Part shown: one piece after another, positions 1-64,000 of the stretch
How positions within the stretch are numbered: the first letter of the stretch is position 1
Layout of the letters: every line of letters starts with the position of its first letter
Virus record (IMG/VR): IMGVR_UViG_3300020374_000001
Direction: 5' to 3' (one strand)
Length of the DNA stretch: 64,000 nucleotides
DNA from: a virus
Taxonomy: Duplodnaviria > Caudoviricetes
The notes under the pieces: model-generated
The model's input: only the letters and a program-made list of their open reading frames with translations
The model's database searches: none
Told to the model about the DNA's origin: nothing
Position numbers and translations under genes: made by a program

Positions 1-30
1 TCATATATTTTTTTCATAGTGTTTTTCTCC

Positions 31-396
31 TTATTTTAAATATAATGGACCAGTCCATTGAATTGGATAATTACCAGTAAGTACATTACCTCTGGCAGAA
101 TTTAAAGCAGGCGCATTGTAACCAGCGGCTTTCAATATATCACCTTTTTTAAAATGTTTAAAGTCTTCTTTTACAATAAAACAAAATACGCCGTTTTCTT
201 GTACAACTTTAATATACTTTTTACCTGGCATAATTCTAGTATTAGAATCCCATTTATTAGTTTGTTCTAAACTATAACCAGTTAATTCTTTCTTTCCATA
301 ACTAGTTGACATTGCAACATAGTCAGCCTTAGCACCAGCCATCATAAACTTAATGCCTTCTTCAAGTGTTTCACATTTTTGAGATACTTTTATCAT
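31..396 (-). CDS. Early hypothetical protein
   Basis: 121-aa ORF, AAGGA RBS, downstream of the sigma70-type promoter at 655-683; no family recognised. Confidence 0.75.
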   Translation of the reverse strand: MIKVSQKCETLEEGIKFMMAGAKADYVAMSTSYGKKELTGYSLEQTNKWDSNTRIMPGKKYIKVVQENGVFCFIVKEDFKHFKKGDILKAAGYNAPALNSARGNVLTGNYPIQWTGPLYLK

Positions 397-408
397 AGTG
401 TTTGTCCT

Positions 409-645
409 TTATTGTGTTTTATAATCGTTTAAGATTTTATTGATTGTGTTTTTCATATTAATATCAATTTTATCTTTGAAAAAATCAGACATTTCTGGTG
501 TCTGTTCTTTAATATCTTTCAAAATATCATTGATTCTTTTATAAACAATATTTCTTATTATCGGAATATTGCTATTTACAGCAAATTTAGACATATATAA
601 ATCGCCTAAAAATGATTCGTTTGTTTTTGTGTTTTTTGTTGTCAT
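409..645 (-). CDS. Early hypothetical protein
   Basis: 78-aa ORF starting 10 nt after the -10 box. Confidence 0.6.
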   Translation of the reverse strand: MTTKNTKTNESFLGDLYMSKFAVNSNIPIIRNIVYKRINDILKDIKEQTPEMSDFFKDKIDINMKNTINKILNDYKTQ

Positions 646-654
646 ATACTAAAT

Positions 655-683
655 AATATACAGGAAAACCAACCCGATTGCAA
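655..683 (-). promoter_or_regulatory. Sigma70-type early promoter (TTGCAA-N17-TATATT)
   Basis: Minus strand reads ttgcaa tcgggttggttttcctg tatatt, directly upstream of the leftward gene string. Confidence 0.7.
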
Positions 684-701
684 GCAAAAAATCCCGAAAA
701 T

Positions 702-881
702 ATGAAAAAAATGACGTTTTTTTTACTTTGTTCTCTTTTTGTTCTCATAAATTGTACAAAAATCAAGGAAAATTGCGAATATAGACCCGAATTTGAAGAA
801 AATAGCGAATCAATGAGCGAATCACTTGACGGAATTGCTCAAATAGAAATTTTACAACACAAAACACGTTGCCAATTTTAG
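702..881 (+). CDS. Small putative lipoprotein
   Basis: From ATG 702: MKK + hydrophobic stretch + LINC lipobox-like Cys; the TTG start at 678 coincides with the opposite -35 box and is unlikely. Confidence 0.4.
   Translation: MKKMTFFLLCSLFVLINCTKIKENCEYRPEFEENSESMSESLDGIAQIEILQHKTRCQF
730..744. promoter_or_regulatory. Putative alphaproteobacterial LexA (SOS) box GTTC-N7-GTTC
   Basis: gttc tcttttt gttc, exact direct-repeat geometry, next to the early promoter. Confidence 0.5.
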
Positions 882-889
882 GATAAATA
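882..889 (+). promoter_or_regulatory. T4-type late promoter variant GATAAATA
   Basis: One mismatch to TATAAATA, 6 nt before ATG 896. Confidence 0.5.
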
Positions 890-895
890 GTTTTT

Positions 896-1335: not shown

Positions 1336-1634
1336 TGCCAGCAGTTAGTAGAAAAGGAGATAGTTTAAGTACAGGACACATATGTGCTGGAACAACTATA
1401 CTTGCAACACCAGGACAATCAACGGTTAGAGCAAATAGTATATTGATTGCTAGACAAACTGATCCTACGGTATCACACCCTTTTCCACCATTACCACCTT
1501 GTGCGCCACACGTTGCAAAAGTTAATGTAGGAAGTACAACGGTTAGAGTATGTGGTTTACCAATTGCAAGAGTAGGTGATAGTACAGACGCAGGACAAAT
1601 GACTAAAGGTTCTTCTAATGTTTTCTCTGGTTAG
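1335..1634 (+). CDS. PAAR spike-tip protein (T4 gp5.4-like)
   Basis: PAVSRKGD, IARQTD, PIARVGD PAAR motifs, His/Cys metal ligands, GSSNVF end. Confidence 0.92.
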   Translation: MPAVSRKGDSLSTGHICAGTTILATPGQSTVRANSILIARQTDPTVSHPFPPLPPCAPHVAKVNVGSTTVRVCGLPIARVGDSTDAGQMTKGSSNVFSG

Positions 1635-2078: not shown

Positions 2079-2079
2079 A

Positions 2080-3921
2080 ATGGCAAGTAATAAGTTCGTA
2101 GTATCAGATTTAGATTTTGACGCAATAAAATCAAATTTAAAAGCATTCTTACAAGATCAACCAGAGTTTTCAGATTATAATTTTGAAGGATCAGGTTTTG
2201 CTGTTTTAATAGATACATTAGCATACAATACACACTATCTAGGTTTCAATGCTAATATGGTTGCAAATGAAATGTACCTAGACTCTGCTGATATTAGAAA
2301 AAATGTAGTTTCATTAGCAAAGATGTTAGGATATGTGCCATCATCTTGTAGATCACCTATTGCAAACGTAGATATAACTTTAAACAATGCTACAGGTTCA
2401 TCGGTTACAATGGATAAAGGAACAACCTTTACATCAACAATAGATAATTTAACTTATCAGTTTGTAACTAACCAAGAATCAACAATCACACCTGCAGATG
2501 GTGTTTATAAATTTTCAGGTGTAGATTTATATGAAGGTACTTTAGTTTCATTTAGATATACGGTTGATAGTACAGATGTTGACCAAAGATTTATTATACC
2601 AAGTGTAAATGCTGATACATCTACATTAAAAGTAATTGTACAAAACTCAGCAACTGATTCAACGCAAAATGTTTATACATTAGCGGCTGGTTTAAAAAGT
2701 TTAGATAATACATCAAAGGCATATTTTTTACAAGAAACAGATACAGGTAAATTTGAAATATATTTTGGCGATGATATATTAGGTAAAAAATTATCAGATG
2801 GTAACATTGTAATTTTAGAATACATAGTTACAAATAAAGATGAAGCAAACGGCGCTTCTGCTTTTAATGTTTCAAGTTCAGTAGGTGGTTTTTCAGACGT
2901 ATCTATTGTAACTAATTCAAATGCTCAAGGTGGTTCTGATCCAGAAACAAAAGAATCAATTAGATTTAATGCACCTTTACAATATACATCACAAGACAGA
3001 GCAGTTACAACAACAGATTACGAAACTTTAGTAAGATCAATTTATCCTAATGCAACTTCTATAAGTGCTTGGGGTGGTGAAGATGACGAAACACCTGTTT
3101 ACGGTGTTGTTAAGATTGCTGTAAAAGGTCAATCAGGTGTTCCTTTAACTAATGCAACAAAATTAGATATAGTTACAAAATTAAAACCTTATAATGTTGC
3201 TTCAGTAAGACCAGAAATAATTGATCCAATAACAACTTCAATTGTGTTAGTAGTCAATGCTAAGTTTGATAAAAAATCAACTGCTAAAACTTCAGACACA
3301 TTAAGATCAGAAATTATAAGTGCAATAAATGATTACAATAATAATACATTAAAAGCGTTTGATGGTGTATTCAGACATTCAAAAGTAACAGGTATTATAG
3401 ATGACGTAGATAGTTCTATTTTATCTAATATAACAAATGTAAAAGTTAGAAAAGATTTTACACCTACTTTAAACTCATCTACAAAATACGATATATATTT
3501 TAGAAACGCAATTTACAATCCACATTCAGGACACGAATCAGTTTTATCATCTACTGGATTTAAAGTATCTGGTAATAATAATGAAATGTTTTTAGATGAT
3601 GATGGTATGGGAAATGTTAGAGTTTATTATCTAGTAAGTGGTATTAAAACCGTTCACAATGCTACACAAGGTACAATTAATTACGGAACAGGACAAGTTA
3701 CTATTAATTCTTTAGATGTTAATTCAATTTCAAATATTAGAGGTTCTGCTTCAACTAAAATTGAGGTAACCGTTTCTCCTAGTTCAAATGACGTTGTTCC
3801 TGTAAGAGATCAAATTTTAGAAATAGATGTTTCTAATTCTATTGTTAATGTTACCGAGGATACTTTTGTAGGAGGATCATCCGAGGCAGGAGTAGGATAC
3901 ACAACTTCATCAAGTTACTAA
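2080..3921 (+). CDS. gp6: Baseplate wedge subunit gp6
   Basis: LDFDAIKSNLK, FSDYNFEGS, LAYNTHY, QDRAVTTTDY; 613 aa after gp25. Confidence 0.95.
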   Translation: MASNKFVVSDLDFDAIKSNLKAFLQDQPEFSDYNFEGSGFAVLIDTLAYNTHYLGFNANMVANEMYLDSADIRKNVVSLAKMLGYVPSSCRSPIANVDITLNNATGSSVTMDKGTTFTSTIDNLTYQFVTNQESTITPADGVYKFSGVDLYEGTLVSFRYTVDSTDVDQRFIIPSVNADTSTLKVIVQNSATDSTQNVYTLAAGLKSLDNTSKAYFLQETDTGKFEIYFGDDILGKKLSDGNIVILEYIVTNKDEANGASAFNVSSSVGGFSDVSIVTNSNAQGGSDPETKESIRFNAPLQYTSQDRAVTTTDYETLVRSIYPNATSISAWGGEDDETPVYGVVKIAVKGQSGVPLTNATKLDIVTKLKPYNVASVRPEIIDPITTSIVLVVNAKFDKKSTAKTSDTLRSEIISAINDYNNNTLKAFDGVFRHSKVTGIIDDVDSSILSNITNVKVRKDFTPTLNSSTKYDIYFRNAIYNPHSGHESVLSSTGFKVSGNNNEMFLDDDGMGNVRVYYLVSGIKTVHNATQGTINYGTGQVTINSLDVNSISNIRGSASTKIEVTVSPSSNDVVPVRDQILEIDVSNSIVNVTEDTFVGGSSEAGVGYTTSSSY

Positions 3922-46664: not shown

Positions 46665-46672
46665 TATAAATA
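46665..46672 (+). promoter_or_regulatory. T4-type late promoter TATAAATA
   Basis: Exact consensus before gp13. Confidence 0.85.
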
Positions 46673-46693
46673 GTATAAAAGATAAGGATTTTT

Positions 46694-47515: not shown

Positions 47516-47519
47516 TACT

Positions 47520-49623: not shown

Positions 49624-49638
49624 CACTTTTAAAACTCT

Positions 49639-49646
49639 TATAAGTA
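49639..49646 (+). promoter_or_regulatory. Late promoter variant TATAAGTA
   Basis: Intergenic, flank resembles the copy at 55159. Confidence 0.65.
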
Positions 49647-49663
49647 ATAATAAGGAGTTTTAA

Positions 49664-50879: not shown

Positions 50880-52512
50880 TGTAAATGACGCATATTTAGG
50901 TAACCCTAATTTAAAGAAAGTTAACACACCAGTTAGTTTTACTAAAGAACAAATAGTAGAATATCAAAAGTGTGCTAATAATCCTATATATTTTATGGAA
51001 ACCTATATGCAAATTGTTTCCTTAGATGAAGGACTTGTTCCTTTTAAAATGTATGACTTTCAAAAGAAGATAGTTAATACTATTCATAATAACAGATTTA
51101 CAATTTGCAAACTACCTAGACAATCAGGTAAATCAACTACAACGGTTGCTTATCTAATGCACTATGCAATGTTTAATCCAAATACAAATGTTGCTATACT
51201 TGCCAATAAATCTTCTACTGCTAGAGATATATTAGGAAGACTTCAACTTGCATATGAAAATTTACCAAAATGGATGCAACAAGGTGTTATCAATTGGAAC
51301 AAAGGTAATATAGAATTAGAAAACAAATCAACTATTGTTGCCGCTGCTACATCTTCAAGTGCTATTAGGGGTGGTTCATATAATATAATATTCCTTGATG
51401 AGTTTGCTTTCGTACCTACAAACATTGCTGAAATGTTTTTTAGTTCCGTTTATCCTACAATATCTTCAGGACAAAAAACAAAAATGATTATAGTATCAAC
51501 ACCTTATGGTATGAATCAATTTTATAAACTATGGATAGACGCAGAAAAGAAAAGAAACGATTACATACCTATTGATGTACATTGGTCAGAGGTACCAGGT
51601 AGAGATGATGAGTGGAAAGAACAAACAATTAGAAATACATCACCTGAGCAATTTCAACAAGAGTTTGAGTGTGAGTTTTTAGGTTCTGTTAATACACTTA
51701 TTAGTCCTTCTAAAATTAAATCTTTAGTTTATGATACACCTAAAAGATCAAAACAAAGTGTAGAACAATTTGAAGAACCTATTAAAGGTCGTACATATGT
51801 TGTAACCGTAGATGTCGCAAGAGGTGTAGATAAAGATTACTCGGCGTTTGTTGTATTTGATGTAACTAAAATGCCATTTAGAGTAGTTGCAATATATAAA
51901 AATAATGAAGTAAAACCTTTTGTATTTCCTAATATTATATCTGAAATTGCAAAAAGATATAATCAAGCACACATATTAACTGAAGTAAACGATATAGGTC
52001 AACAGATAGCAGAAGCACTACAATATGAGATAGAATATCCTAATGTATTAATGTGTACTCAAAAAGGTCGTGCTGGTCAAATATTAGGTGCTATGTATAG
52101 TGGTCGTGGTTCATCTCTAGGTGTTCGTATGACAAAACAGATTAAACGAGTAGGATGTGCTAATTTAAAGACATTAATTGAAGGAGATAAGTTAATTATT
52201 AACTCTTTCAAAATCATAGAGGAAATGTCAACTTTTGCTAAAAGAGGTCAATCCTGGCAGGCTGAGGACGGTAGCAATGATGATTTGATGATGTGCTTAG
52301 TTATCTTTGGTTGGGTATCAAATCAAGGATACTTCAAAGAATTGACTAATCAAAATGCTCGTATGCAAATGTATGCTGAACAACAAAATTTAATAGAACA
52401 AGATATGGCACCGTTTGGTTTTGTAGATGACGGTGTTAATACTGAAGAAAATGAAGAAACAATAGACGAATATGGAGATAGATGGATACCTGTGGTGCGT
52501 AAAAACCATTAG
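50872..52512 (+). CDS. gp17: Terminase large subunit gp17
   Basis: Start MANVNDAYLGNPNLK; PRQSGKS Walker A, IFLDEFAF Walker B, DVARG, NDDLMM. Confidence 0.97.
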   Translation: MANVNDAYLGNPNLKKVNTPVSFTKEQIVEYQKCANNPIYFMETYMQIVSLDEGLVPFKMYDFQKKIVNTIHNNRFTICKLPRQSGKSTTTVAYLMHYAMFNPNTNVAILANKSSTARDILGRLQLAYENLPKWMQQGVINWNKGNIELENKSTIVAAATSSSAIRGGSYNIIFLDEFAFVPTNIAEMFFSSVYPTISSGQKTKMIIVSTPYGMNQFYKLWIDAEKKRNDYIPIDVHWSEVPGRDDEWKEQTIRNTSPEQFQQEFECEFLGSVNTLISPSKIKSLVYDTPKRSKQSVEQFEEPIKGRTYVVTVDVARGVDKDYSAFVVFDVTKMPFRVVAIYKNNEVKPFVFPNIISEIAKRYNQAHILTEVNDIGQQIAEALQYEIEYPNVLMCTQKGRAGQILGAMYSGRGSSLGVRMTKQIKRVGCANLKTLIEGDKLIINSFKIIEEMSTFAKRGQSWQAEDGSNDDLMMCLVIFGWVSNQGYFKELTNQNARMQMYAEQQNLIEQDMAPFGFVDDGVNTEENEETIDEYGDRWIPVVRKNH

Positions 52513-52524
52513 GTTTGTGTTTAT

Positions 52525-52532
52525 TATAAATA
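52525..52532 (+). promoter_or_regulatory. T4-type late promoter TATAAATA
   Basis: Exact consensus before gp18. Confidence 0.85.
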
Positions 52533-52624
52533 TCAGTAAGAATGAAATTTAACTATGGGCGTATGAATAATACGAGTTTTGAATAAAATGACAACTAAAT
52601 TAGCTAATTAGAGGAGAATAACTT

Positions 52625-54562
52625 ATGGCATTTCAAGTATCACCTGGTGTTCTCGTACAGGAAAGAGATTTAACAAGAATCATTCCTGCAGTATCAACTT
52701 CAATCGGTGCAGTTGCTGGACAATTCAGCAAAGGTCCGTTAGATGAGATAGTTTCTATTTCTAGTGAACAAGAACTTGTAGATACGTTTGGTAAACCTGA
52801 TAGTACGAACTTTGAGTATTTTTTCAGCGCTGCTAACTTCTTACAATATTCTAACTCATTAAGAGTAGTACGAGCTACCCAAACAAGTTTAGTCAACGCT
52901 ACCGCTGGTGGCTCTGGTTTGCTTGTAAAAAATAAACAAGACTACGAAGATAATTACTCAACTGGACAAGGTTCAGTAGGTACTTTTGCTGCTAGATCAG
53001 CAGGTGCTTGGGGTAATAGTCTTTCAGTAGCAACTTGTCCAAGTGCTAACGCATTTGAACAAACAACAACTACATCTCAACAAGTAGATGGAGGCGCTTC
53101 TGTTGGTGCAACTACAATAACGGTTGACTCAGACGCAACAAGTTACCTTAATATCGGAGACGTTATTGAGTTTTCTTCAACTGCTTCAGGTGTAGATTTT
53201 ACTACTGGTGAAAAATATAGAGTAACTAACCTTACTTCAACGGTCGTAACAATTGTACAACATCCTAGAGGCGAAGGCGGTTTAATAACTGCTGTTGTAG
53301 ATAACGCAAGAATCAAAAGAAAATGGAGATACGCAGATCAAGTTGATGGCGCTCCAGGAACTTCTGCTTGGACTTCTACAAGATCAGGTTCTGGCGATGA
53401 AATACACGTAGTTGTAATAGATGAAGACGGAGGAGTTTCAGGAGTACCTGGAACGGTTTTAGAATCTTATTCTAAATTATCAAAAGCTTCAGACGCAAAA
53501 TCACCACAAGGAGATGTTAACTACTATCCAAGTGTAATTAGTAACAAATCTAGTTACGTATTTTGGATGGATCATAACACTTCTGGAACCAATTGGGGTA
53601 ACGCAGCCGCAGGAACAACATTTACTGCTGTTGATGTACCTACAAGTGAATCATTATCTGGCGGAGTAGATGGTTCTGCTGCTACTGACGGTCAATTAAA
53701 AACTGCTTACGAGAAGTTTAATGACGCCGACACGGTAGATGTAGGATTATTAATCGCTGGACCAAGTGGTTCTGCTTCACACGTTGAAAGTATGATTACA
53801 ATTGCAGAAAATAGAAAAGATGTAGTTGTATTCGCTTCACCGCAAAGAAGTGATGTGGTTAATGTATCAAACTCAAATACACAAACAAGTAATGTAACTG
53901 GTTTCTTTGATGGAATTAGATCATCTTCTTATGTTGTATTTGATAGTGGTTACAAATATTGCTACGATAGATACAATGATGTGTACAGATATGTACCATT
54001 AAACGGAGACATTGCTGGATTGGCTGCTAGAACAGACATATTAGCGGATTCTTGGTTCTCACCTGCAGGATTAAACCGAGGTGTAATTAGAGGCGCTGCT
54101 AAATTAGCATATAATCCTACAAAATCACAAAGAGATGATCTTTACACAAGTAGAGTAAATCCAGTTGCAACTTTCTCAGGACAAGGAACAATCTTGTTTG
54201 GAGATAAAACTGGTTTATCATCACCGAGTGCATTTGATAGAATCAATGTTAGACGATTGTTCATCACTTTAGAGAAGGCAGTATCAACTGCTTCTAAATT
54301 CCAACTCTTTGAATTTAATGACGAATTTACAAGAGCGAACTTTAGAAACATTGTAGAACCTTTTTTAAGAGAAGTACAAGGTAGACGTGGTATCACAGAC
54401 TTTTTAGTAGTGTGTGATGAAACTAACAACACAGGCGAAGTAATTGATAGAAATGAATTTGTTGCAGAAATTTTTGTAAAACCTGCAAGAAGTATCAACT
54501 TTATCACATTATCTTTTGTCGCAACCAGAACTGGCGTTTCTTTTGAAGAAGTCGCTGGGTAA
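52625..54562 (+). CDS. gp18: Tail sheath protein gp18
   Basis: SPGVLVQERD, WFSPAGLNRG, AFDRINVRRLF, FEFNDEFTR. Confidence 0.97.
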   Translation: MAFQVSPGVLVQERDLTRIIPAVSTSIGAVAGQFSKGPLDEIVSISSEQELVDTFGKPDSTNFEYFFSAANFLQYSNSLRVVRATQTSLVNATAGGSGLLVKNKQDYEDNYSTGQGSVGTFAARSAGAWGNSLSVATCPSANAFEQTTTTSQQVDGGASVGATTITVDSDATSYLNIGDVIEFSSTASGVDFTTGEKYRVTNLTSTVVTIVQHPRGEGGLITAVVDNARIKRKWRYADQVDGAPGTSAWTSTRSGSGDEIHVVVIDEDGGVSGVPGTVLESYSKLSKASDAKSPQGDVNYYPSVISNKSSYVFWMDHNTSGTNWGNAAAGTTFTAVDVPTSESLSGGVDGSAATDGQLKTAYEKFNDADTVDVGLLIAGPSGSASHVESMITIAENRKDVVVFASPQRSDVVNVSNSNTQTSNVTGFFDGIRSSSYVVFDSGYKYCYDRYNDVYRYVPLNGDIAGLAARTDILADSWFSPAGLNRGVIRGAAKLAYNPTKSQRDDLYTSRVNPVATFSGQGTILFGDKTGLSSPSAFDRINVRRLFITLEKAVSTASKFQLFEFNDEFTRANFRNIVEPFLREVQGRRGITDFLVVCDETNNTGEVIDRNEFVAEIFVKPARSINFITLSFVATRTGVSFEEVAG

Positions 54563-54584
54563 TTAGTAGAGGAGAAAAAATAAA

Positions 54585-55112
54585 ATGGCAAACATAAATG
54601 ACTTCAAAGCTAAACTTGCTGGTGGTGGCGCAAGAGCCAATCAGTTTAAGGTAACTATGCCTTTTCCTGGTTACGCACAAGTTGGTGGAGAAATAGAAGA
54701 CTTAGCGTTTCTATGTACAAGTACAACAATACCTGCTATGACGGTAGGTAATGTTAATGTTCCTTTTAGAGGTAGACAGATCAAAGTTGCAGGTGATAGA
54801 ACATTTGCAGATTGGTCAATTACGGTTCTTAACGATACGAACTTTAAGTTAAGAAATGCTTTTGAAAGATGGCAAAATGGTATCAACAATATGTCAGACA
54901 ACGAAGGATTATCAAATCCTGTTGACTATCAAGTTGACGCTTTTGTTGACCAGTTGGACAGAAACGGTAATACATTAAAATCTTATACTTTAAGAGGCGC
55001 TTATCCTGTGGATATAGCGGCTATTGATTTGAATTTTGCAACGAATGACGAAGTTGAAACATTTGGTGTAACTTTCCAATATCAATATTTTGAAACAAAC
55101 ACTACTACATAG
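54585..55112 (+). CDS. gp19: Tail tube protein gp19
   Basis: GGARANQF, PFRGRQIKVAGDRTF..W. Confidence 0.95.
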   Translation: MANINDFKAKLAGGGARANQFKVTMPFPGYAQVGGEIEDLAFLCTSTTIPAMTVGNVNVPFRGRQIKVAGDRTFADWSITVLNDTNFKLRNAFERWQNGINNMSDNEGLSNPVDYQVDAFVDQLDRNGNTLKSYTLRGAYPVDIAAIDLNFATNDEVETFGVTFQYQYFETNTTT

Positions 55113-55123
55113 TAGATAAATTT

Positions 55124-55150
55124 AAAGGGCGCCGTCAAAAGCGCCCTTTT
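55124..55150 (+). terminator. Rho-independent terminator
   Basis: aaagggcgc-cgtcaaaa-gcgcccttt(t) hairpin after gp19. Confidence 0.8.
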
Positions 55151-55158
55151 AAAACTAT

Positions 55159-55166
55159 TATAAGTA
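55159..55166 (+). promoter_or_regulatory. Late promoter variant TATAAGTA
   Basis: Just after the terminator, before gp20. Confidence 0.7.
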
Positions 55167-55189
55167 TTAGGAGAAACAAAGGATAAATT

Positions 55190-56716
55190 ATGGCAGAGTT
55201 ATTTGGTTTTAATATAACTAGAGTTAAACCACAAACAGATCCAAAACAACAATTCAGTCAACCTCAAGCGGAAGACGGCACACAGGTAGTTGCCGCTGGT
55301 GGTTTCTTTGGTAGTTACCTTGATATGGAAGGTACTGCTAAAACTGAGCAGGACTTAATTAGAAGATATAGAGAAATTGCTTTACATCCAGAATGTGATA
55401 TGGCAATTGAGGATATTGTTAATGAGGCAATTACTTCTAATGAAAATAGACAATCTGTAAAAGTTGTAACTGATGGTTTAGATTATTCTTCAGCTATTAA
55501 ACAAAAAATAGAACAAGAATTTGCTGAAGTATTAAGACTATTACAATTTAACACAAGAGGACACGACCTCTTTAGAAGATGGTATGTTGATGGAAGAATC
55601 TTTTTCCAAAAGGTTATTGACGCTGAAAACACAAAGAACGGTATAACAGAATTAAAGTACCTTGATCCTAGAAAGATTAAGAAGATTAGAGAAGTTAGAA
55701 AGAGAAGACCTGAAGGTATGGTTTCTCCTACTAACATTAATATTGCAGACGAAACGGTAGAATATTTTGTATATAATGAAAGAGGTATACAAGGATCGGC
55801 TGCTATTCAAGGAATTAAAATTGCTGTGGACACTATTGCATTTTGTCCATCAGGAATGATAGATCAGAATAAGAATGGTTTAATATTATCTTATTTACAT
55901 AAGGCAATTAAACCTGTCAATCAGTTAAGAATGATTGAAGACGCTGCTGTGATTTACAGAATCGCAAGAGCACCTGAAAGAAGAATATTTAAGATTGATG
56001 TAGGTAATTTACCTAAGGCAAAAGCAGAATCTTATTTAAGAGATGTTATGGCAAGATATAGAAACAAACTTGTTTATGACGCTTCAACAGGAGAAATAAG
56101 AGATGACAGAAATTATATGTCAATGCTTGAAGACTTTTGGTTGCCAAGTAGAGAAGGTGGTAGAGGAACAGATATTACTACACTTCCAGGTGGTGCTAAT
56201 TTAGGTGAAATAGCAGACATAGAATATTTTAGAGCAAAATTATATAGATCATTAAACGTACCTGTAAGTAGATTAGAGGCAAGTCAAGGTTTCAATCTAG
56301 GTAGATCATCTGAAATTAGTAGAGATGAATTGAAATTTACTAAATTTGTAGGTAGATTAAGAAAGAAATTTACAGAATTGTTTAATGATTTATTAAGAAC
56401 ACAATTAATAATCAAAGGTGTAATTTCTGAAACAGAATGGCCAATGGTTAGAGATAGTATCTTCTACGACTTTTTACAAGACGGTCACTTTGCAGAATTA
56501 AAGAATACTGAAATGTTAAGAGAAAGACTAAACTTGGCAAGAGAAGTAAGAGATTATGTTGGTAAATATTTTTCTGTTAATTATGTTAGAAGAAACATAT
56601 TAAAACAAACAGAATCAGAAATTAAGAAAATGGATGCTGAAATCAAAAAAGAAATTGATGACGGCATAATTTCATCACCTGAAGTACAAACAACAGGTAA
56701 TGATGAATTAATATAG
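55190..56716 (+). CDS. gp20: Portal protein gp20
   Basis: FRRWYVDGR, SYLHKAIK, YRIARAPERRIF, EDFWLP..GGRGT. Confidence 0.97.
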   Translation: MAELFGFNITRVKPQTDPKQQFSQPQAEDGTQVVAAGGFFGSYLDMEGTAKTEQDLIRRYREIALHPECDMAIEDIVNEAITSNENRQSVKVVTDGLDYSSAIKQKIEQEFAEVLRLLQFNTRGHDLFRRWYVDGRIFFQKVIDAENTKNGITELKYLDPRKIKKIREVRKRRPEGMVSPTNINIADETVEYFVYNERGIQGSAAIQGIKIAVDTIAFCPSGMIDQNKNGLILSYLHKAIKPVNQLRMIEDAAVIYRIARAPERRIFKIDVGNLPKAKAESYLRDVMARYRNKLVYDASTGEIRDDRNYMSMLEDFWLPSREGGRGTDITTLPGGANLGEIADIEYFRAKLYRSLNVPVSRLEASQGFNLGRSSEISRDELKFTKFVGRLRKKFTELFNDLLRTQLIIKGVISETEWPMVRDSIFYDFLQDGHFAELKNTEMLRERLNLAREVRDYVGKYFSVNYVRRNILKQTESEIKKMDAEIKKEIDDGIISSPEVQTTGNDELI

Positions 56717-56724
56717 GAGAAAAA

Positions 56725-57039
56725 ATGAGCGAAGAAGTAAAACAATTTATAGATAAGATGGCAAAAAACGATATGGTCGGTGCTGGCGATGCTTTTAAAG
56801 ACGCTTTAAGAGCAAAAGTTGGGGATCAATTAGATGTGAAAAGACAAGATGTTGCTGGAAATATGTTTCAGGCACAACCTCATAGTGATCCAAAACCAGA
56901 GATCGCAGGTACAGGTACTTTTACACAAGATGGACAAGTTGAACCTACAGGTGCAAACGCACAAGAAACACAACCAGAAACACCAGAGGTATCGGATGCA
57001 GAAAGTCAGCCAGCTAATACAGACGCAACAGGCGTTTAA
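56725..57039 (+). CDS. Small acidic protein, prohead core (gp67-like position)
   Basis: Directly after portal, AGGAG RBS. Confidence 0.55.
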   Translation: MSEEVKQFIDKMAKNDMVGAGDAFKDALRAKVGDQLDVKRQDVAGNMFQAQPHSDPKPEIAGTGTFTQDGQVEPTGANAQETQPETPEVSDAESQPANTDATGV

Positions 57040-57235
57040 TAGTAAATCTTATAACGATTTGTCGCCAGTTTTAAAAGAGGCGATTAACGACACAATGAAA
57101 TTAGTTAAGAGTGATGGTAATTTATTATTTAACTTTGAAAATGCAATTAATAAAGTTGCAGAATTTCATAATGTCAACAAAGACGATATTGAAGAATACT
57201 TTGATAACGAATTAAAAGAACAAGTGGGAGAATAA
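56996..57235 (+). CDS. Small hypothetical protein (head module)
   Basis: Start MQKVS at 56996 with GAGGT RBS; 44-nt overlap with the upstream gene. Confidence 0.65.
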   Translation: MQKVSQLIQTQQAFNSKSYNDLSPVLKEAINDTMKLVKSDGNLLFNFENAINKVAEFHNVNKDDIEEYFDNELKEQVGE

Positions 57236-57236
57236 A

Positions 57237-57470
57237 ATGGCGTGGGTAGATGTACCAGGATCAAATAGTATTTGGCAGTATGATAATGCTGCTACTATTT
57301 CTAATACTTACAAAGATTCAGCAGATGGCAGTAATGTTGCTATCTCTGGTGGTATTAGAACTTTTACTAAACCAGGTGGTGGATCGACTCAAGTTTACAT
57401 AAGAACTAGAAAGAAAGGCGAAACGGTAGAACGAGGCGAACTTTCTAAAACTTTTTATGACGCACAATAG
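57237..57470 (+). CDS. Hypothetical protein
   Basis: 77-aa ORF, GGAG RBS. Confidence 0.7.
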   Translation: MAWVDVPGSNSIWQYDNAATISNTYKDSADGSNVAISGGIRTFTKPGGGSTQVYIRTRKKGETVERGELSKTFYDAQ

Positions 57471-57479
57471 GAAATAGAA

Positions 57480-57872
57480 ATGGCAGATATAGTATCAACA
57501 CAAGTATTATCAGACACATCTGGAGTTAAGTACGTTGCAAAATTGACTAACATATCAGATGGTTCTGGTGAATCTTTAGTTAAAAAAATAGACGCTTCAA
57601 GTGCAACTTTTATGACCGAAGATGGTAGTAGAAAGATTGCAAAAATATGGTGGTCTGTTAATACAACAAAATCTAATGCAAGTGTAGAGTTAGTATGGGG
57701 TGGTGAAACAAACGCAACAGCAATGTTATTAAATGGTCAAGGTTATTGGGATTTAAGAACTGCTGGTAATGAGATTGTTAACAATGCTACTACACCTACA
57801 GGTGATGTTTTACTATCTACAAGGGACTTTGTAGTAGGGGATAATTACACGATTTTAGTAGAGTTTAGATAA
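57480..57872 (+). CDS. Hypothetical protein (possible capsid-associated)
   Basis: 130-aa beta-rich ORF in the head module. Confidence 0.65.
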   Translation: MADIVSTQVLSDTSGVKYVAKLTNISDGSGESLVKKIDASSATFMTEDGSRKIAKIWWSVNTTKSNASVELVWGGETNATAMLLNGQGYWDLRTAGNEIVNNATTPTGDVLLSTRDFVVGDNYTILVEFR

Positions 57873-57879
57873 AAAAAGT

Positions 57880-57887
57880 TATAAATA
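57880..57887 (+). promoter_or_regulatory. T4-type late promoter TATAAATA
   Basis: Exact consensus before gp21. Confidence 0.85.
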
Positions 57888-57904
57888 TACAAGAGAGAGA
57901 ATAA

Positions 57905-58549
57905 ATGAAGTTAATATCCGAAGAAATCACAAACGCAGAATACCTAGTTGAAGAAACTAACGGTAAGAAGAATTATAAAATTAGAGGCGTTTTTCTACAA
58001 TCAGACTTAAAAAATAGAAATGGACGTGTCTATCCCAAAGACATATTGAATAATGAGGTAGAAAGATACAATAGAGAATTTATCAACAAAAAACGTGCAT
58101 TTGGTGAGTTAGGACATCCTGACGGACCAACGGTAAATCTGGAAAGAGTTAGTCATATGATTACTAAACTTGCACCAGATGGACAGAATTTTGTAGGTGA
58201 AGCAAAGATAATGAACACACCATACGGTAAGATTGTAAAAGGTCTTATTGACGAAGGTGCTCAACTAGGAGTATCTAGTAGAGGTATGGGTTCGTTAGAA
58301 ACAAGAGGTGGCGCAAACTATGTAAAAGATGACTTTTACTTGGCAACCGCTGCTGATATAGTCGCAGATCCAAGTGCTCCAGACGCTTTCGTAGAAGGTA
58401 TTATGGAGAGTAAAGAGTGGGTTTGGGACAACGGAGTACTCGTAGAAAAGAGCATAGAATCTTGGAAACGAGAGATAGAAAGTGCGAAAAGACACGCTTT
58501 AGCAGAAGCTAAAATAAAAGTCTTTAAAAACTTTCTTTCAAATCTCTAG
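57905..58549 (+). CDS. gp21: Prohead protease gp21
   Basis: KNRNGRVY, GELGHP, GVSSRGMGS, DIVADPSAPDA. Confidence 0.97.
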   Translation: MKLISEEITNAEYLVEETNGKKNYKIRGVFLQSDLKNRNGRVYPKDILNNEVERYNREFINKKRAFGELGHPDGPTVNLERVSHMITKLAPDGQNFVGEAKIMNTPYGKIVKGLIDEGAQLGVSSRGMGSLETRGGANYVKDDFYLATAADIVADPSAPDAFVEGIMESKEWVWDNGVLVEKSIESWKREIESAKRHALAEAKIKVFKNFLSNL

Positions 58550-58552
58550 TTT

Positions 58553-58560
58553 TATAAATA
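58553..58560 (+). promoter_or_regulatory. T4-type late promoter TATAAATA
   Basis: Exact consensus before gp22. Confidence 0.85.
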
Positions 58561-58611
58561 TTAACAATTAATTAATTAAAACTAGTTTTAACTATTAAAG
58601 AGGAGATTTCA

Positions 58612-59841
58612 ATGGCCGAAACAGACAAAACACTTGTTGAAGCAGGAAAAGAAGTAATGGAAGCAACAGCTCCAGATGCTCCTAAAAAGAACGCTGTACC
58701 CGCTGAGCCTTCACCGTTAAAAAATGACGCTGAAGATTTAGGCGCAGCTGTAGTAAAACCTACAGACAGCAATCCTGACGCAACAAAAAAAGTTAAAGAA
58801 GTTTCTGGGCAAGCACCTCAAAAATCAGAAGGTGCTCCTGATCCAATGCCAAAAATGGATTCAAAACATCCAGGTAAAGCAATGGAAGCAAAAGAAACTG
58901 ACAAAGATTCGGAAGATAAAGAAATCAAAGAAGGCGAAATGCCTGCAGGTCTTAAAAAGTACCTTGACAAAAAAGACGATAAAAAAGAGTCTATGGACGA
59001 CAAGGAAAAAGAGAAAGTGAATGCTTCATATAAAAAAGAAGACGCAGACGCTGACAAGAAAAAAGAAGAACCTAAGGCAGAAGAAAAAGAAGAAAAGAAA
59101 GATATTGACGTAAAAGAACACGTTGATGCTCTTGTCGCTGGAGAAGATTCATTATCTGAAGAATTTAAAACTAAAGCTGCTACCGTATTTGAAGCTGCGA
59201 TTAAATCTAAAGTAAAAGAAATCGCTGAAGAAATGCAGGCAGATTACGACAAGAAATTAACCGAAGAAACTTCTAAATCTAAAGATGAGTTAGTAGAAAA
59301 AGTTGACTCTTACCTTGCTTACGTAGTGGAAGAGTGGATGAAAGAAAACGAACTTGCTTTAGAAAGAGGAATCAAAGGTGAAATCGCTGAGGACTTTATT
59401 AGTGGTCTTAAAAAATTATTTGAAGATCATTATATTGATGTTCCAGACGAAAAATACAATGTATTAGAAGATCAATCTTCTAAAATTGAGGAGTTAGAAA
59501 AGAAACTTAACGAATCAATTGAAAAGAATGTTGAATTAACTAAAGAGAATGGCGAACACAAAAGACAAGACATCATTGATGAGGCGTCTAAAGAGTTAGC
59601 TGATACTCAAAAAGAAAAATTCAATAAACTTGCCGAAGAAGTTGAATATTCAAACGAAGAAGATTTTAAAACTAAAGTAGCAACTATTAAAGAGAGTTAC
59701 TTTGGTAAAAAAGAATCAACTAGTGAGATAGATGATGTGGCGGCAGAGTCGAATGCTGAGCAACCTCAGGATTTAACTAATGCAATGGCTGCTTATAGTG
59801 CCGCTATAAGTAAAACAAAAGACATTAAGTTGTCTAACTAA
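58612..59841 (+). CDS. gp22: Prohead core scaffold gp22
   Basis: LSEEFKTKAATVFEAA, VDSYLAYVVEEWM; acidic coiled coil before gp23. Confidence 0.93.
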   Translation: MAETDKTLVEAGKEVMEATAPDAPKKNAVPAEPSPLKNDAEDLGAAVVKPTDSNPDATKKVKEVSGQAPQKSEGAPDPMPKMDSKHPGKAMEAKETDKDSEDKEIKEGEMPAGLKKYLDKKDDKKESMDDKEKEKVNASYKKEDADADKKKEEPKAEEKEEKKDIDVKEHVDALVAGEDSLSEEFKTKAATVFEAAIKSKVKEIAEEMQADYDKKLTEETSKSKDELVEKVDSYLAYVVEEWMKENELALERGIKGEIAEDFISGLKKLFEDHYIDVPDEKYNVLEDQSSKIEELEKKLNESIEKNVELTKENGEHKRQDIIDEASKELADTQKEKFNKLAEEVEYSNEEDFKTKVATIKESYFGKKESTSEIDDVAAESNAEQPQDLTNAMAAYSAAISKTKDIKLSN

Positions 59842-59858
59842 TAGGGAGATAAAAACAA

Positions 59859-61214
59859 ATGTATTTATCAGAACAATACGAAAAAAAATGGCAGCCTGTC
59901 CTAGAACACCCTGACTTACCAAAAGTTACGGATTCTTACAGACGAGCCGTTACAGCTACTATCTTGGAAAACCAAGAAAGAGCTATGAAAGAGGACGCTG
60001 GTTTCTTAAACGAAGCAGCTCCTACAAACTCTACTGGTTCTTCAGTAGCAAATTGGGATCCAATCCTAATTTCACTAGTTAGAAGAGCTATGCCAAATCT
60101 TATCGCATACGATATTGCTGGTGTTCAGCCAATGACTGGACCAACTGGTCTTATCTTTGCAATGAGAAGTAGATACACTTCACAAACAGGAAACGAAGCA
60201 TTATTTGATGAAGCAGATACAGACTTCTCTAGCAGAAACGCTGCTGGTGACTCAAGTCAAGGTGCTGATTCAGGTGCTACTCCTACAGATCATTCAGGAA
60301 CAAACCCAAGCGTATTAAATGACGCTGCTGCTGGTTCAACAGATTATAGTAGAGGTCAAGGTATGACAACTGCTGCTGCTGAAGCACTAGGGGATGCTAC
60401 TGGAAATCAGTTTGCTGAGATGGCTTTCTCAATTGAGAAATCTACGGTTACTGCTAGAAGCAGAGCGTTAAAGGCAGAATACACTATGGAACTTGCTCAA
60501 GACTTAAAAGCAATCCACGGTTTAGATGCTGAAACGGAATTGGCAAACATCTTATCTGCTGAAATCCTTGCGGAAATCAATAGAGAAGTTGTAAGAACAA
60601 TTTACATCAATGCAGAAAAAGGTGCTGCTGTTAACACAACTACAGCTGGTATCTTTGATTTAGACACAGACTCAAACGGAAGATGGTCAGTTGAGAGATT
60701 CAAAGGACTAATGTTCCAATTAGAGAGAGATGCTAATAGAATTGCACAAAGAACAAGAAGAGGAAAAGGTAATATGATTATCTGTTCTGCTGACGTTGCT
60801 AGTGCTCTTCAAATGGCTGGTGTTTTAGATTACACTCCTGCATTAAACAACAATCTATCTGTTGACGATACTGGTAATACTTTTGCTGGTACTCTAAACG
60901 GAAGATACAAAGTATATATTGATCCATACTCAGCTAATTCAGCTGCGAAACAATACTACGTTGTCGGTTACAAAGGTACTTCACCTTATGACGCTGGTAT
61001 TTTCTACTGCCCATATGTACCATTACAAATGGTAAGAGCAGTTGGACAAGATACTTTCCAACCAAAAATTGGTTTCAAAACTAGATACGGTTTAGTTGCG
61101 AACCCATTTGCTGAAACTGGTGCTCAATCAGGTGCTGCTACTGCTGTAAACCACTCTGGTTCTGCAAATAGTAACAGATACTACCAAAGAGTACAAGTTG
61201 CTAACATAATGTAA
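59859..61214 (+). CDS. gp23: Major capsid protein gp23
   Basis: LVRRAMPNLIAYD, GVQPMTGPTGLIFAMR, SRALKAEYTMELAQDLKAIHGLDAE, FQPKIGFKTRYG. Confidence 0.98.
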   Translation: MYLSEQYEKKWQPVLEHPDLPKVTDSYRRAVTATILENQERAMKEDAGFLNEAAPTNSTGSSVANWDPILISLVRRAMPNLIAYDIAGVQPMTGPTGLIFAMRSRYTSQTGNEALFDEADTDFSSRNAAGDSSQGADSGATPTDHSGTNPSVLNDAAAGSTDYSRGQGMTTAAAEALGDATGNQFAEMAFSIEKSTVTARSRALKAEYTMELAQDLKAIHGLDAETELANILSAEILAEINREVVRTIYINAEKGAAVNTTTAGIFDLDTDSNGRWSVERFKGLMFQLERDANRIAQRTRRGKGNMIICSADVASALQMAGVLDYTPALNNNLSVDDTGNTFAGTLNGRYKVYIDPYSANSAAKQYYVVGYKGTSPYDAGIFYCPYVPLQMVRAVGQDTFQPKIGFKTRYGLVANPFAETGAQSGAATAVNHSGSANSNRYYQRVQVANIM

Positions 61215-61245
61215 TATTGGTTGATCGTTGTTTGACGATTACTTT

Positions 61246-61278
61246 AAAGGGGCGGCCTCAAAACCGCCCCTTTTTTTT
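61246..61278 (+). terminator. Rho-independent terminator
   Basis: aaaggggcgg-cctcaaaa-ccgcccc followed by T8, after gp23. Confidence 0.92.
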
Positions 61279-61293
61279 GGCATAAATAAATGT

Positions 61294-61524
61294 ATGATTG
61301 AACAAATTAAGAAGATTGTTATTGGATTGATTGCAATATCTTTGTTTATAGGATGTTTAGCAATTACATTAAACCACTTAAACCCAAAACCCACACTAGA
61401 AGATAACATAAATCAGAAACTAGAAGAGGCAGAAAGCAATCCTCTTACTGATAAAGAGCGTGAATTAGCAACAGAATCACAGACAAAAGAGTGGGAAGAA
61501 GTAGATAAAGAAACAGATAAATAG
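61294..61524 (+). CDS. Small membrane-anchored hypothetical protein
   Basis: Start MIEQIKK after CATAAATA (61281-61288); one N-terminal hydrophobic helix, acidic tail. Confidence 0.65.
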   Translation: MIEQIKKIVIGLIAISLFIGCLAITLNHLNPKPTLEDNINQKLEEAESNPLTDKERELATESQTKEWEEVDKETDK

Positions 61525-61528
61525 TAGT

Positions 61529-62155
61529 ATGACTACTACAAACTCATATAGAAGGCAACCTACTAAACAGGATTATGCCGATCCTACAAAGTTTAAATTT
61601 AGTATAATTAAACTTCCTAAAGTAGAATATTTTTGTACACAGGTAAATCTACCTGGTATTAGTCTAGCAGATAACTATACACAACCTACACCATTTAGAA
61701 ACATACCTTTACCTGGTGAAAAACTACAATACGAACCTTTGTCTATGACATTTCTAGTAGATGAAAATTTAGAAAACTACCAAGAAATACACGGTTGGTT
61801 AAGAGGTTTAGGTTTTCCTGGTGGACACGAAGAATTTAAGAAACTATTAGATAGTGGGGCAGACAGGTTTCCTACATCTAAAAGTAGTGTATTGCCTGAC
61901 GCTGGAAGATCAAAGTTTGGCGCTCCTAATACTGGTGCTATATTTTCAGACGCAACACTAAACATTTTAACAAGTAAAAACAATCCTGTTACTGAAGTTA
62001 GATTTAGTGATTTGTTTCCTATATCACTATCTGCTTTACAATACAATCAACAAGCAACTGATACTGATTACCTAACAGCAACGGTAACCTTTGAATACAA
62101 ACTATACGATTTTGCGACATCAAACGCAAGTAGAACTACAATAACAACCTCATAA
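61529..62155 (+). CDS. gp3: Tail tube terminator/completion protein gp3
   Basis: PKVEYFC..NLPGISL, FLVDENLENY.EIHGW, SDATL; GATAAATA at 61516-61523. Confidence 0.88.
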   Translation: MTTTNSYRRQPTKQDYADPTKFKFSIIKLPKVEYFCTQVNLPGISLADNYTQPTPFRNIPLPGEKLQYEPLSMTFLVDENLENYQEIHGWLRGLGFPGGHEEFKKLLDSGADRFPTSKSSVLPDAGRSKFGAPNTGAIFSDATLNILTSKNNPVTEVRFSDLFPISLSALQYNQQATDTDYLTATVTFEYKLYDFATSNASRTTITTS

Positions 62156-62158
62156 ACA

Positions 62159-62187
62159 TTGACTTTTTAGTCGGTTTGTGTTATTAT
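62159..62187 (+). promoter_or_regulatory. Sigma70-type promoter TTGACT-N17-TATTAT with extended -10
   Basis: ttgact ttttagtcggtttgtgt tattat upstream of uvsY. Confidence 0.75.
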
Positions 62188-62196
62188 GGATATATT

Positions 62197-62625
62197 ATGG
62201 ATTTAGAACAATTACAAGAATTAGCAGACAAAGATTTAAAAATTAATGATACTGAATTAGATTTAGAATCATTAAAAACACCTCAACTACATAACAAATA
62301 TTTAAAACATTTAACAAAGTTTAAGTTGTTATTAACTAGAGCGCAAGACGATTTTACTAGAATAAAAAAAGATAAGTGGGAATACTATACTGGTAAGGCA
62401 GACCCAGCAGTATATCAATTAAAACCTTTTAACTTAAAAATATTAAAAGCAGATGTACAGCAATATATCGAATCAGATGAAGAATGGATCAAAGCGAATC
62501 AAAAAGTTAAATACTTGGAAACTATTGTAGATTTTTTAGATAGAACAATAAGACAAATTAGTAATAGAACATTTACTATTAAGAACGCCATTGACTGGAG
62601 AAAGTTTACTAGTGGCGCTATCTAA
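62197..62625 (+). CDS. uvsY: Recombination mediator UvsY
   Basis: ESLKTPQLHNKY, WEYYTGKA, IKNAIDWRKF; start MDLEQ. Confidence 0.92.
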   Translation: MDLEQLQELADKDLKINDTELDLESLKTPQLHNKYLKHLTKFKLLLTRAQDDFTRIKKDKWEYYTGKADPAVYQLKPFNLKILKADVQQYIESDEEWIKANQKVKYLETIVDFLDRTIRQISNRTFTIKNAIDWRKFTSGAI

Positions 62626-64000
62626 TGACAACCACACGATACCTCATCATAGATAAGAAGAACGAAGTCTATTTAAAGATAGAAGCGGACGCTGATATTC
62701 GTAGAGAATTAGGCGAATACTTTACCTTTGAAGTGCCTGGTTTTAAGTTTATGCCCCAATATAGAAATAGAGTTTGGGACGGTAAAATTAGATTATTCAG
62801 TTATGCAACTGGTCAAATATATGCAGGATTATATCCTTACATAGTAGATTGGTGTAATAAAAATGATATTCAAATAGTAGATGGAACTAAAATAAAAGAT
62901 GTTCCAATGAGTGCTGAAGATACAAATAGATTTCTAAAAGCATTAAAGATACCTAAATTACAAATAAGAGATTATCAAGCAGAAGCATTTGTACACGCAA
63001 TTAAAAAGAGTAGATGTTTATTGTTATCACCAACTGCCTCTGGTAAATCATTAATAGTTTATCTTATATTAATATACAATCTATTGAGATTAAAAGAAAA
63101 GAAACAAGATAAGATATTAATTATAGTACCTACAACATCTTTAGTAGAACAATTATATAAAGATTTTAAAGACTACGGTTATAATAGTGATCGTAATGTA
63201 CATAGAATATATCAAGGACACGATAAAGATACTAATAAAAGAGTAATAATATCTACTTGGCAGTCAATATATAACTTACCTAAAAAATGGTTTAAACAAT
63301 TCGGTATGGTTATTGGTGATGAGGCACATTTATTTAAAGCAGTTTCATTAACAAAGATAATGACAAAACTAGAAAATTGTAAGTATAGAGTAGGACTTAC
63401 AGGTACTTTAGATGGCACTAAAACACATAAACTTGTACTAGAAGGATTGTTTGGTACGGTAAATAAGGTAGTATCTACAAGTGAATTACAAGAAAAGAAA
63501 CAACTTGCTAATCTAAAAATTTTCTGTTTAATTTTACAACACGATAAACACGCAAGAGATTTTATGTTTGGTAAAACTTACCAAGAAGAAATGGATTATT
63601 TGGTTAAGAATGAAAAGAGAAACAAGTATATACGTAATTTAGTTTCATCTTTACAAGGTAATACTTTAGTTTTGTTTCAGTACGTGGAAAAGCACGGTAT
63701 GGAATTAAAGAAACTAATAGAAGAAAAGAATCCTGATAAAAAAGTATTCTTTGTATATGGTGGTGTAGAAGCGGAAGAAAGAGAAAAGATTAGATTTATA
63801 ACTGAAAAATCTGATGGTGCTATCATAGTTGCTAGTTATGGTACTTTTTCAACAGGTATTAATATCAGAAACTTACATAACATAGTTTTTGCAAGTCCTA
63901 GTAAAAGTAGAATAAGAAATTTACAATCTATTGGTCGTGGTTTAAGATTAAAAGATAATGATTCTAATGCTACTTTATATGATATATCAGATGATTTAAC
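62625..64000 (+). CDS. uvsW: SF2 DNA helicase UvsW (runs off the window end)
   Basis: Read from DNA: WDGKIRLF, RDYQ, SPTASGKS, DEAH, GLTGT, QSIGRGLR; absent from the ORF track because it has no stop in the window. Confidence 0.95.
   Translation, partial: MTTTRYLIIDKKNEVYLKIEADADIRRELGEYFTFEVPGFKFMPQYRNRVWDGKIRLFSYATGQIYAGLYPYIVDWCNKNDIQIVDGTKIKDVPMSAEDTNRFLKALKIPKLQIRDYQAEAFVHAIKKSRCLLLSPTASGKSLIVYLILIYNLLRLKEKKQDKILIIVPTTSLVEQLYKDFKDYGYNSDRNVHRIYQGHDKDTNKRVIISTWQSIYNLPKKWFKQFGMVIGDEAHLFKAVSLTKIMTKLENCKYRVGLTGTLDGTKTHKLVLEGLFGTVNKVVSTSELQEKKQLANLKIFCLILQHDKHARDFMFGKTYQEEMDYLVKNEKRNKYIRNLVSSLQGNTLVLFQYVEKHGMELKKLIEEKNPDKKVFFVYGGVEAEEREKIRFITEKSDGAIIVASYGTFSTGINIRNLHNIVFASPSKSRIRNLQSIGRGLRLKDNDSNATLYDISDDL

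Follow-up and report, generated by a model that had tools for sequence, protein, structure and literature searches.

Absence of the palindrome ACWGT from 64 kb of a T4-like marine phage and its recurrence among relatives

Why should a phage genome lack one particular 5-base word altogether? The question is raised by a stretch of 64,000 nucleotides from the IMG/VR virus record IMGVR_UViG_3300020374_000001 (Caudoviricetes), analyzed here at its full length and called the window, in which the word ACWGT (ACAGT or ACTGT) is found 0 times on each strand, whether the DNA is coding or not. ACWGT is a short palindrome of the form of a restriction site, and its count is zero on both strands whatever the direction of the genes. 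In our assessment, the lineage of this phage was probably selected to lose ACWGT by a Type II-like activity that specifically targets DNA at this word and that most likely resides in the host.

Absence of ACWGT and the codon choices that avoid it

We compared the count with two null models. Under a dinucleotide-preserving shuffle, the window holds on average 178.5 ACWGT over both strands, corresponding to ~89 sites, and the lowest both-strand count is still roughly 150. The second null, a codon shuffle, permuted synonymous codons within each of the 66 open reading frames (ORFs) called in the window (49 on the plus and 17 on the minus strand, together covering 94.5% of it), such that the proteins and the per-gene codon usage were preserved. 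It expects 121.0 ± 6.6 ACWGT, and even the lowest of 60 shuffles gave 108, against 0 observed. The word is missing from all eight 8-kb bins, those of the minus-strand island included. The avoidance is thereby confirmed as real and highly significant. A sequence-only reading of the window had found no ACAGT or ACTGT by eye, in the island or elsewhere, and had roughly expected ~100 of them; the count agrees with the former and both shuffles with the latter, and the observed/expected ratio (O/E) is not near 1 under a null that preserves codons and proteins.

The forbidden unit is exactly the 5-mer ACWGT. All 4-mers contained in it (CAGT, ACTG, ACAG, and CTGT) are common in the window, so that a shorter word cannot account for the loss, and the 13 one-mismatch neighbors of ACWGT have O/E values of 0.91 to 1.59. 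The sister word ACSGT is even doubled, with 168 occurrences observed versus 82 expected from the codon shuffle. The known Type II enzymes of similar specificity, namely, HpyCH4III, Tsp4CI, and TaaI, recognize ACNGT, likewise a 5-bp palindrome with the outer bases AC-GT; however, the enrichment of ACSGT excludes an ACNGT enzyme as the agent, as the sequence-only reading had argued for the HpyCH4III/Tsp4CI type. ACWGT would instead represent a sub-specificity of ACNGT, in the same way as GTSAC (Tsp45I) is a narrower sub-specificity of GTNAC (MaeIII). We know of no prototype enzyme for ACWGT itself.

How the word is kept out of genes is most evident from threonine codons. Overall, Thr is encoded by ACA (922 codons), ACT (695), ACG (111), and ACC (69), yet none of the 1,617 ACA and ACT codons stands ahead of Val: the 94 Thr-Val pairs use ACG (66) or ACC (28) and never ACA or ACT. 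This is the rule that the sequence-only reading had proposed from the pairs it checked, and the examples it quoted were located on the plus strand from 1419, 3646, and 60441 (Table 1) and, as CTG-ACC-GTA, near 25665 on the minus strand. Its claim that the codons for Cys and Ser also dodge the word holds as well, since AGT is used for Ser in 0 of 72 cases following an xAC codon versus 87 of 194 following xAT, and all 4 Cys codons following xAC are TGC. In an A_T context, Gln is always CAA (81/81).

Derived and recurrent loss among related phages

The gene content places the window phage among the pelagimyophages, the T4-like marine myophages of SAR11 and OM43; its T4-type structural module is nearest to those of Pelagibacter phage Mosig, HTVC008M, and Methylophilales phage Melnitz. 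The window encodes Pfam domains of the T4 baseplate proteins gp6, gp8, and gp9/10 and of the tail sheath gp18; the sheath shares 69%, 58%, and 57% amino acid (aa) identity with those of Mosig, HTVC008M, and Melnitz, respectively, and the GC content of 32% lies in the range of the group (30 to 35%). The three cultured phages also have the same structural gene order and are themselves heavily site-depleted, but they have purged other sets of words and carry ACWGT at normal frequency (259 observed versus 265 expected in Mosig and 156 versus 142 in HTVC008M, both for the stretches counted, and 144 versus 156 in Melnitz). A csgF-csgG operon is widespread among pelagimyophages (PMC7029224).

The sequence is natural and persistent. 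An independent IMG/VR contig (G001) is 99.7% identical to positions 17987 to 33202 of the window and has 0 ACWGT versus about 11 expected, and marine metagenomes from seven studies, dated 2013 to 2025, contain at least 74% of the 31-mers sampled from an 8-kb stretch of the window. For four metagenome runs, the reads placed on the window yielded short contigs by the thousand, derived from a mixture of relatives and showing about 2,000 differences. Bins of metagenome-assembled genomes (MAGs) provided no host link for the window phage: relatives found by their sheath lie in MAGs labeled as many phyla, which marks these as mis-binnings. We infer hosts of the SAR11 type.

The absence of ACWGT is derived and targeted. 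Six IMG/VR loci (L001 to L006) with 82 to 91% nucleotide identity to the window hold 101 ACWGT sites in the aligned parts, of which 0 are conserved at the aligned window position. Control palindromes matched to ACWGT in composition class (AGWCT, TCWGA, CAWTG, GTWAC, and TGWCA) fare differently in the same alignments, with 261 of 501 (52%) conserved. A single base breaks 71 of the 101 sites, with ACGGT as the commonest product. At the 59 distinct window positions concerned, motif positions 1 to 5 are changed 9, 19, 27, 20, and 13 times, respectively, and 33 of the 59 distinct changes are synonymous while 26 alter the protein. The use of all five motif positions, and of protein-altering changes, argues for selection on the DNA word and not for one mutational process. 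Furthermore, the sites of the sisters are ancestral. In the closest relative, L316, 12 of the 14 ACWGT sites covered by the outgroup L006 are common to both, and the ACWGT sites of L006 survive in L316 at a rate equal to that of the control palindromes (12/33 versus 46/121). The sisters, at about 90% identity to the window, never underwent a purge, and the window lineage lost every ancestral ACWGT site after its split from them.

The loss recurs. Sampling of relatives comprised 80 IMG/VR loci collected by their sheath and, in a second sample, 80 metagenome contigs. Sheath-found loci typically carry about 2 ACWGT per kb, yet the word is at zero in L028 (7.4 kb), L030 (5.7 kb), L037 (2.1 kb), and L053 (6.6 kb) and nearly so in L039 (2 sites in 11.6 kb) and L048 (1 site in 4.3 kb); in the second sample, the Tara scaffold L365 has 0 sites versus 13.6 expected. 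In the sheath tree, the ACWGT-free loci occupy separate tips, each adjoining ACWGT-normal sisters, and free or near-free loci are only 68 to 80% identical to each other, except for the pairs L030-L090 (95%) and L048-L365 (85%). These identities give about seven ACWGT-poor lineages (the window, L028, L030/C28, L037, L053, L039, and L048/L365), five of which have solid zero counts. The avoidance described by the sequence-only reading in a single genome is thus recurrent, being present in about 7 of the roughly 165 relatives sampled, but it is patchy and not a trait of the whole phage group.

The largest of these cases is C28, a 118.7-kb contig that includes L090. No ACWGT occurs in its first 116.5 kb and three occur in the last 2.2 kb, versus 129 expected. 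C28 is mis-binned in MAG G002, whose cellular contigs have 43% GC and an ACWGT O/E near 1. The locus L034 matches C28 at 96.8% identity along 4.3 kb and nevertheless has 4 ACTGT sites, each one base away from C28, which shows that the constraint switches at the strain level. The three sites of C28 itself fall within positions 116536 to 117546 (L131), where their local density is normal; this end segment reflects either a recent recombination or a strain switch in the assembly. Elsewhere on C28, positions 46671 to 47993 (L128:6671-7993, minus strand) hold an ORF of 440 aa in which an N6_N4 DNA methylase domain is recognized.

Other depleted words in the window and in cultured pelagiphages

ACWGT is one among about 17 words purged from the window, a breadth that the sequence-only reading had missed. 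The other words were scored by their O/E under the codon shuffle and by an unbiased Markov ranking (Table 1). About ten words are wholly purged at once, while GATC, GTAC, GANTC, CCWGG, and GGWCC show no avoidance in the window (for GANTC, 138 observed versus 152 expected). We take CATG, CCGG, CGCG, TCGA, AGCT, TGATCA, TCTAGA, and GAATTC to be the sites of NlaIII-, HpaII-, BstUI-, TaqI-, AluI-, BclI-, XbaI-, and EcoRI-type enzymes, respectively, and AGATCT, AACGTT, ATGCAT, AGTACT, CASTG, GCATC, and GTCTC to be those of BglII, AclI, NsiI, ScaI, TspRI, SfaNI, and BsmAI type. That nearly all purged words are sites of well-known Type II or Type IIS enzymes is the strongest circumstantial argument for ACWGT being a restriction site too.

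Table 1. Features of the window with their coordinates, and the counts of the other depleted words
Feature	Position	Strand	Observation
Window without ACWGT	1..64000	both	codon shuffle expects 121 ± 6.6; all 8-kb bins empty
Thr-Val as ACG-GT	1419..1427	+	TCAACGGTT
Thr-Val as ACC-GT	3646..3654	+	AAAACCGTT
Thr-Val as ACG-GT, capsid region	60441..60449	+	TCTACGGTT
Alignable stretch in which all ancestral ACWGT are destroyed	42531..63448	+	sisters L316, L001-L005; outgroups L006-L008
Tail sheath gene, marker for placing the phage and gathering relatives	52625..54562	+	69% aa identity to Mosig, 58% to HTVC008M
Hypervariable sugar/tailoring-gene island, 28% GC, ACWGT-free	17987..33202	-	bins spanning 16-32 kb empty
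CATG	window		observed/expected 0/83, as extreme as ACWGT
CCGG	window		observed/expected 0/20
CGCG	window		observed/expected 0/7
TCGA	window		observed/expected 3/55
AGCT	window		observed/expected 35/237
TGATCA	window		observed/expected 0/17
TCTAGA	window		observed/expected 0/18
GAATTC	window		observed/expected 0/11
AGATCT	window		observed/expected 0/15
AACGTT	window		observed/expected 0/21
ATGCAT	window		observed/expected 0/20
AGTACT	window		observed/expected 1/21
CASTG	window		observed/expected 2/32
CTWAG	window		observed/expected 12/61
GCATC	window		observed/expected 18/95
GTCTC	window		observed/expected 9/41
TCAAGA	window		observed/expected 1/42; sole site at 60497

The loss of ACWGT is independent of that of the other motifs. 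L001 to L005 lack CATG and TCGA and retain ACWGT, whereas C28 shows the reverse; C28 also retains GATC (258 sites, next to 234 of CATG) and CASTG (58/85). Such independent assortment of motif sets is expected from separate enzymes.

The cultured pelagiphages display comparable losses of other words (observed/expected). Mosig (L081 to L083, complete genome) is depleted of GATC (19/381), ACGT (0/188), CASTG (7/119), and CGCG (0/45), HTVC008M of GATC (27/149), TCGA (2/31), GANTC (15/82), and TCAAGA (0/30), and Melnitz of GATC (14/184) and GGWCC (0/24). Mosig has no ACGT at all and little GATC although it was isolated on HTCC1062. The podophages HTVC010P, HTVC011P, and HTVC019P are unrelated to the myophages and were isolated on the SAR11 strain of HTVC008M and Mosig. 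Among them, GATC is absent from HTVC011P (0/86) and HTVC019P (0/100), GANTC is depleted in both (1/64 and 6/70, respectively), TCGA is absent from HTVC011P (0/24), and CTWAG is absent from HTVC010P (0/20). That podophages and myophages of one host strain have purged words in common favors a host-side cause in general.

Several of the depleted words have features of their own. CTWAG (CTAAG or CTTAG), like ACWGT a W-centered 5-bp palindrome that is not known to have a prototype enzyme, is depleted not only in the window and HTVC010P but also in C28 (22/85) and HTVC019P (5/34), i.e., its avoidance is common to unrelated phage families. The asymmetric hexamer TCAAGA/TCTTGA, at 0/27 in C28, missing from HTVC008M too (0/15; 0/30 in the comparison above), and normal in Mosig and Melnitz, is a candidate target of a Type IIS, Type III, or BREX-like system. 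Almost every asymmetric site that survives in the window has the same orientation (GTCTC, 0 on the plus and 9 on the minus strand; GCATC, 2 and 16, respectively). Sites in a single orientation protect against enzymes that require two head-to-head sites; part of this skew may be due to gene orientation. In the listed HTVC010P-type podophage contigs (L136 to L215), ACSGT is almost absent, with 0 to 1 per contig of up to 18.8 kb, which is the opposite of the window and may reflect either CpG poverty or a separate avoidance.

Candidate causes of the ACWGT purge

The absence of a palindrome from both strands and from non-coding DNA points to symmetric recognition of double-stranded DNA (dsDNA) and not to an effect at the level of RNA or translation. 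In the explanation that we consider probable, dsDNA bearing ACWGT would be attacked during infection, most likely by a homodimeric Type II-like restriction endonuclease that is accompanied by a host-protecting methyltransferase and carried by the infected bacterial strains. Because each site would multiply the chance of being cut, each loss would be favored singly, and sites would be removed by any tolerated single-base change, mostly by silent changes of ACA or ACT to ACG or ACC ahead of Val but also by amino acid changes. Other enzymes, acting by the same process, would have stripped about 16 further words. The sequence-only reading had attributed the avoidance to a restriction or other DNA-targeting defense of the host. 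Specific selection on DNA is what the data bear out, with a restriction-type agent as the most economical cause; that the agent is a nuclease, that the host encodes it, and that this host is a SAR11-type bacterium we infer.

The kind of phenomenon, restriction-site avoidance, is already known. One of its classic examples is the loss of GATC in Staphylococcus phage K. Site avoidance is an established anti-restriction strategy in phages (Rusinov et al. 2018, PMC6286503). As in the surveyed cases, short palindromes are lost from the window genome-wide, mostly by silent changes, at several sites, and in a lineage-specific manner; unlike in those cases, ACWGT is tied to no enzyme found, about ten words are fully purged, and the presumed hosts are reputed to be poor in restriction-modification (R-M) systems. 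A parallel in terms of host is the depletion of GANTC in pelagiphages, which is clustered by lineage and was interpreted as possible evasion of a host methylation-linked defense (Seong et al. 2022, PMC9516812). Both cases concern lineage-clustered motif depletion in phages of SAR11 or, here, presumably SAR11-type hosts. However, theirs involves one motif and a CcrM-type methylase and is clearest in podophages, whereas ours involves a myophage, many words, and no known ACWGT methylase, and GANTC itself is not avoided in the window. New, as far as checked, are ACWGT as an avoided word, the completeness and recurrence of its purge, and the breadth of purging in phages whose hosts are regarded as poor in defenses.

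Several observations weigh against a host restriction system. To purge about 17 words, the phage lineage would have had to meet many enzymes. The literature that could be searched, which did not extend to REBASE, yielded neither an enzyme nor a methylation motif specific for ACWGT; among the matches listed, ACWGT occurred in unrelated, mostly primer-based studies, and no paper searched paired it with restriction, a methyltransferase, or REBASE. The supplements of Blow et al. 2016 are also without ACWGT, an uninformative check given that they returned no motif matches at all, ACNGT included. Furthermore, 0 of 160 HTVC010P- or HTVC019P-type contigs are ACWGT-free, which leaves this particular word without support from another phage family, although this is a narrow set of near relatives of two isolates, and none of 15 sampled small alphaproteobacterial genomes is poor in ACWGT. 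Finally, an R-M system was reported in 1 of >100 SAR11 genomes (PMC7029224). According to a more recent study, about a third of the cultured SAR11 strains carry defense systems, among them R-M, whereas MAGs rarely do (PMC13712998, 2026).

These 15 genomes are small and AT-rich, and their membership in SAR11 is presumed from size and GC content. Their ACWGT O/E is near 1 throughout, as in two single-contig genomes of ~1.2 Mb and 30% GC (23/24 and 23/23), which excludes a general host-type bias; here, as for a shorter motif, a source of the depletion that the sequence-only reading had considered falls away. One alphaproteobacterial genome of 1.2 Mb and 31.7% GC (L300; G139:C32:138000-157900) is itself depleted of CATG (7/50), GATC (17/55), ACGT (4/29), and CASTG (5/14). 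These are words that pelagimyophages have purged, so that this genome may represent a streamlined host rich in restriction systems.

Could the phage itself carry the nuclease? A phage-encoded ACWGT endonuclease without a methylase might shred host or competitor-phage DNA, for example for nucleotide recycling where the ocean is poor in nutrients, while its own genome stays free of targets. Purges as complete as 0 versus 121 in the window and 0 in 116.5 kb of C28 would suit such an always-present, self-inflicted nuclease, as would the fact that ACWGT loss was seen only in the myophage group, with none among the 160 podophage contigs, and the reported scarcity of R-M systems in SAR11 (PMC7029224). 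The trait also flips between phages that are 96.8% identical, as the gain or loss of a single gene would produce. On the other hand, the phage would have to encode nearly one nuclease for each of about 17 purged words, and other purged words are common to unrelated podophages of the same host strain. A gene that tracks the loss of ACWGT did not emerge either: 73 of the 143 ORFs of C28 are without a Mosig homologue, and a single 76-aa ORF is shared by C28 and the window (over the 64 kb of the window genome compared) and absent from Mosig. Among 20 large C28-specific ORFs, we found sugar, nucleotide, and replication domains and one N6_N4 DNA methylase, but no restriction-endonuclease domain. Taken together, we regard a phage-borne nuclease as unlikely.

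Alternatively, the phage may avoid being marked rather than being cut. An orphan ACWGT methyltransferase in some hosts would methylate the progeny, which Type IV-like nucleases would then destroy in the next host. This would yield the same pattern of site loss, 86% of marine methyltransferases are orphans (PMC9516812), and W-centered palindromic 5-mers, such as GAWTC, are methylated in SAR11 (PMC8919816). However, the marine methylome papers searched report no ACWGT methylation motif, and two separate host factors would be required, such that we judge this explanation decidedly improbable.

We rejected a cause acting on RNA, for instance an mRNA interferase with sequence specificity, as ACAGT and ACTGT are both absent in sense, in antisense, and in non-coding DNA. 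Overlap with CASTG, in CACTGT and ACAGTG, was likewise rejected: it could remove at most a quarter of the sites (those with C or G at the flank), and CASTG is retained in C28 although ACWGT has been purged there. Finally, an origin without any defense, as a by-product of codon-pair bias, mutation bias, an overlapping purged motif, or an assembly or design artifact, is hardly credible: the genome is AT-rich with strong codon preferences and has purged CASTG too, but the codon- and protein-preserving null still expects 121 ACWGT, sisters of the same codon usage keep the ancestral sites, host-like genomes have an O/E near 1, substitutions of many types hit all five motif positions, C28 separates the two motifs, and an independent assembly as well as metagenomes of seven or more studies carry the same sequence.

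An ACWGT-specific activity in the host thus remains the explanation that we prefer. Phage genomes record the DNA-cutting defenses they have met, and in this case one 5-base word has been erased completely, repeatedly, and recently. The purge therefore predicts a concrete specificity, ACWGT, to seek in uncultured marine bacteria; an enzyme with a new 5-bp specificity would also be useful in practice, as a reagent. At the same time, it sharpens a puzzle, in that phages with SAR11-type hosts have genomes that rank with the most heavily purged of sites while these hosts are reportedly poor in R-M systems. There are three possible answers: R-M systems may reside in genomic islands that MAGs miss, the phages may have had wider host histories, or the nucleases may be phage-borne. 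It is possible, and we suggest it tentatively, that an ACWGT-specific restriction activity, missing from the literature searched, circulates in strains of abundant streamlined ocean bacteria and has driven at least five to seven independent complete purges in T4-like phages, or else that phage-borne nucleases did so, with self-protection by site absence. If the latter were true, this would be a new strategy for distinguishing self from non-self. If the former were true, the forbidden-word spectra of pelagiphages would reveal a rich and fast-turning restriction arsenal in hosts, SAR11 and the like, that genome surveys have scored as nearly defenseless.

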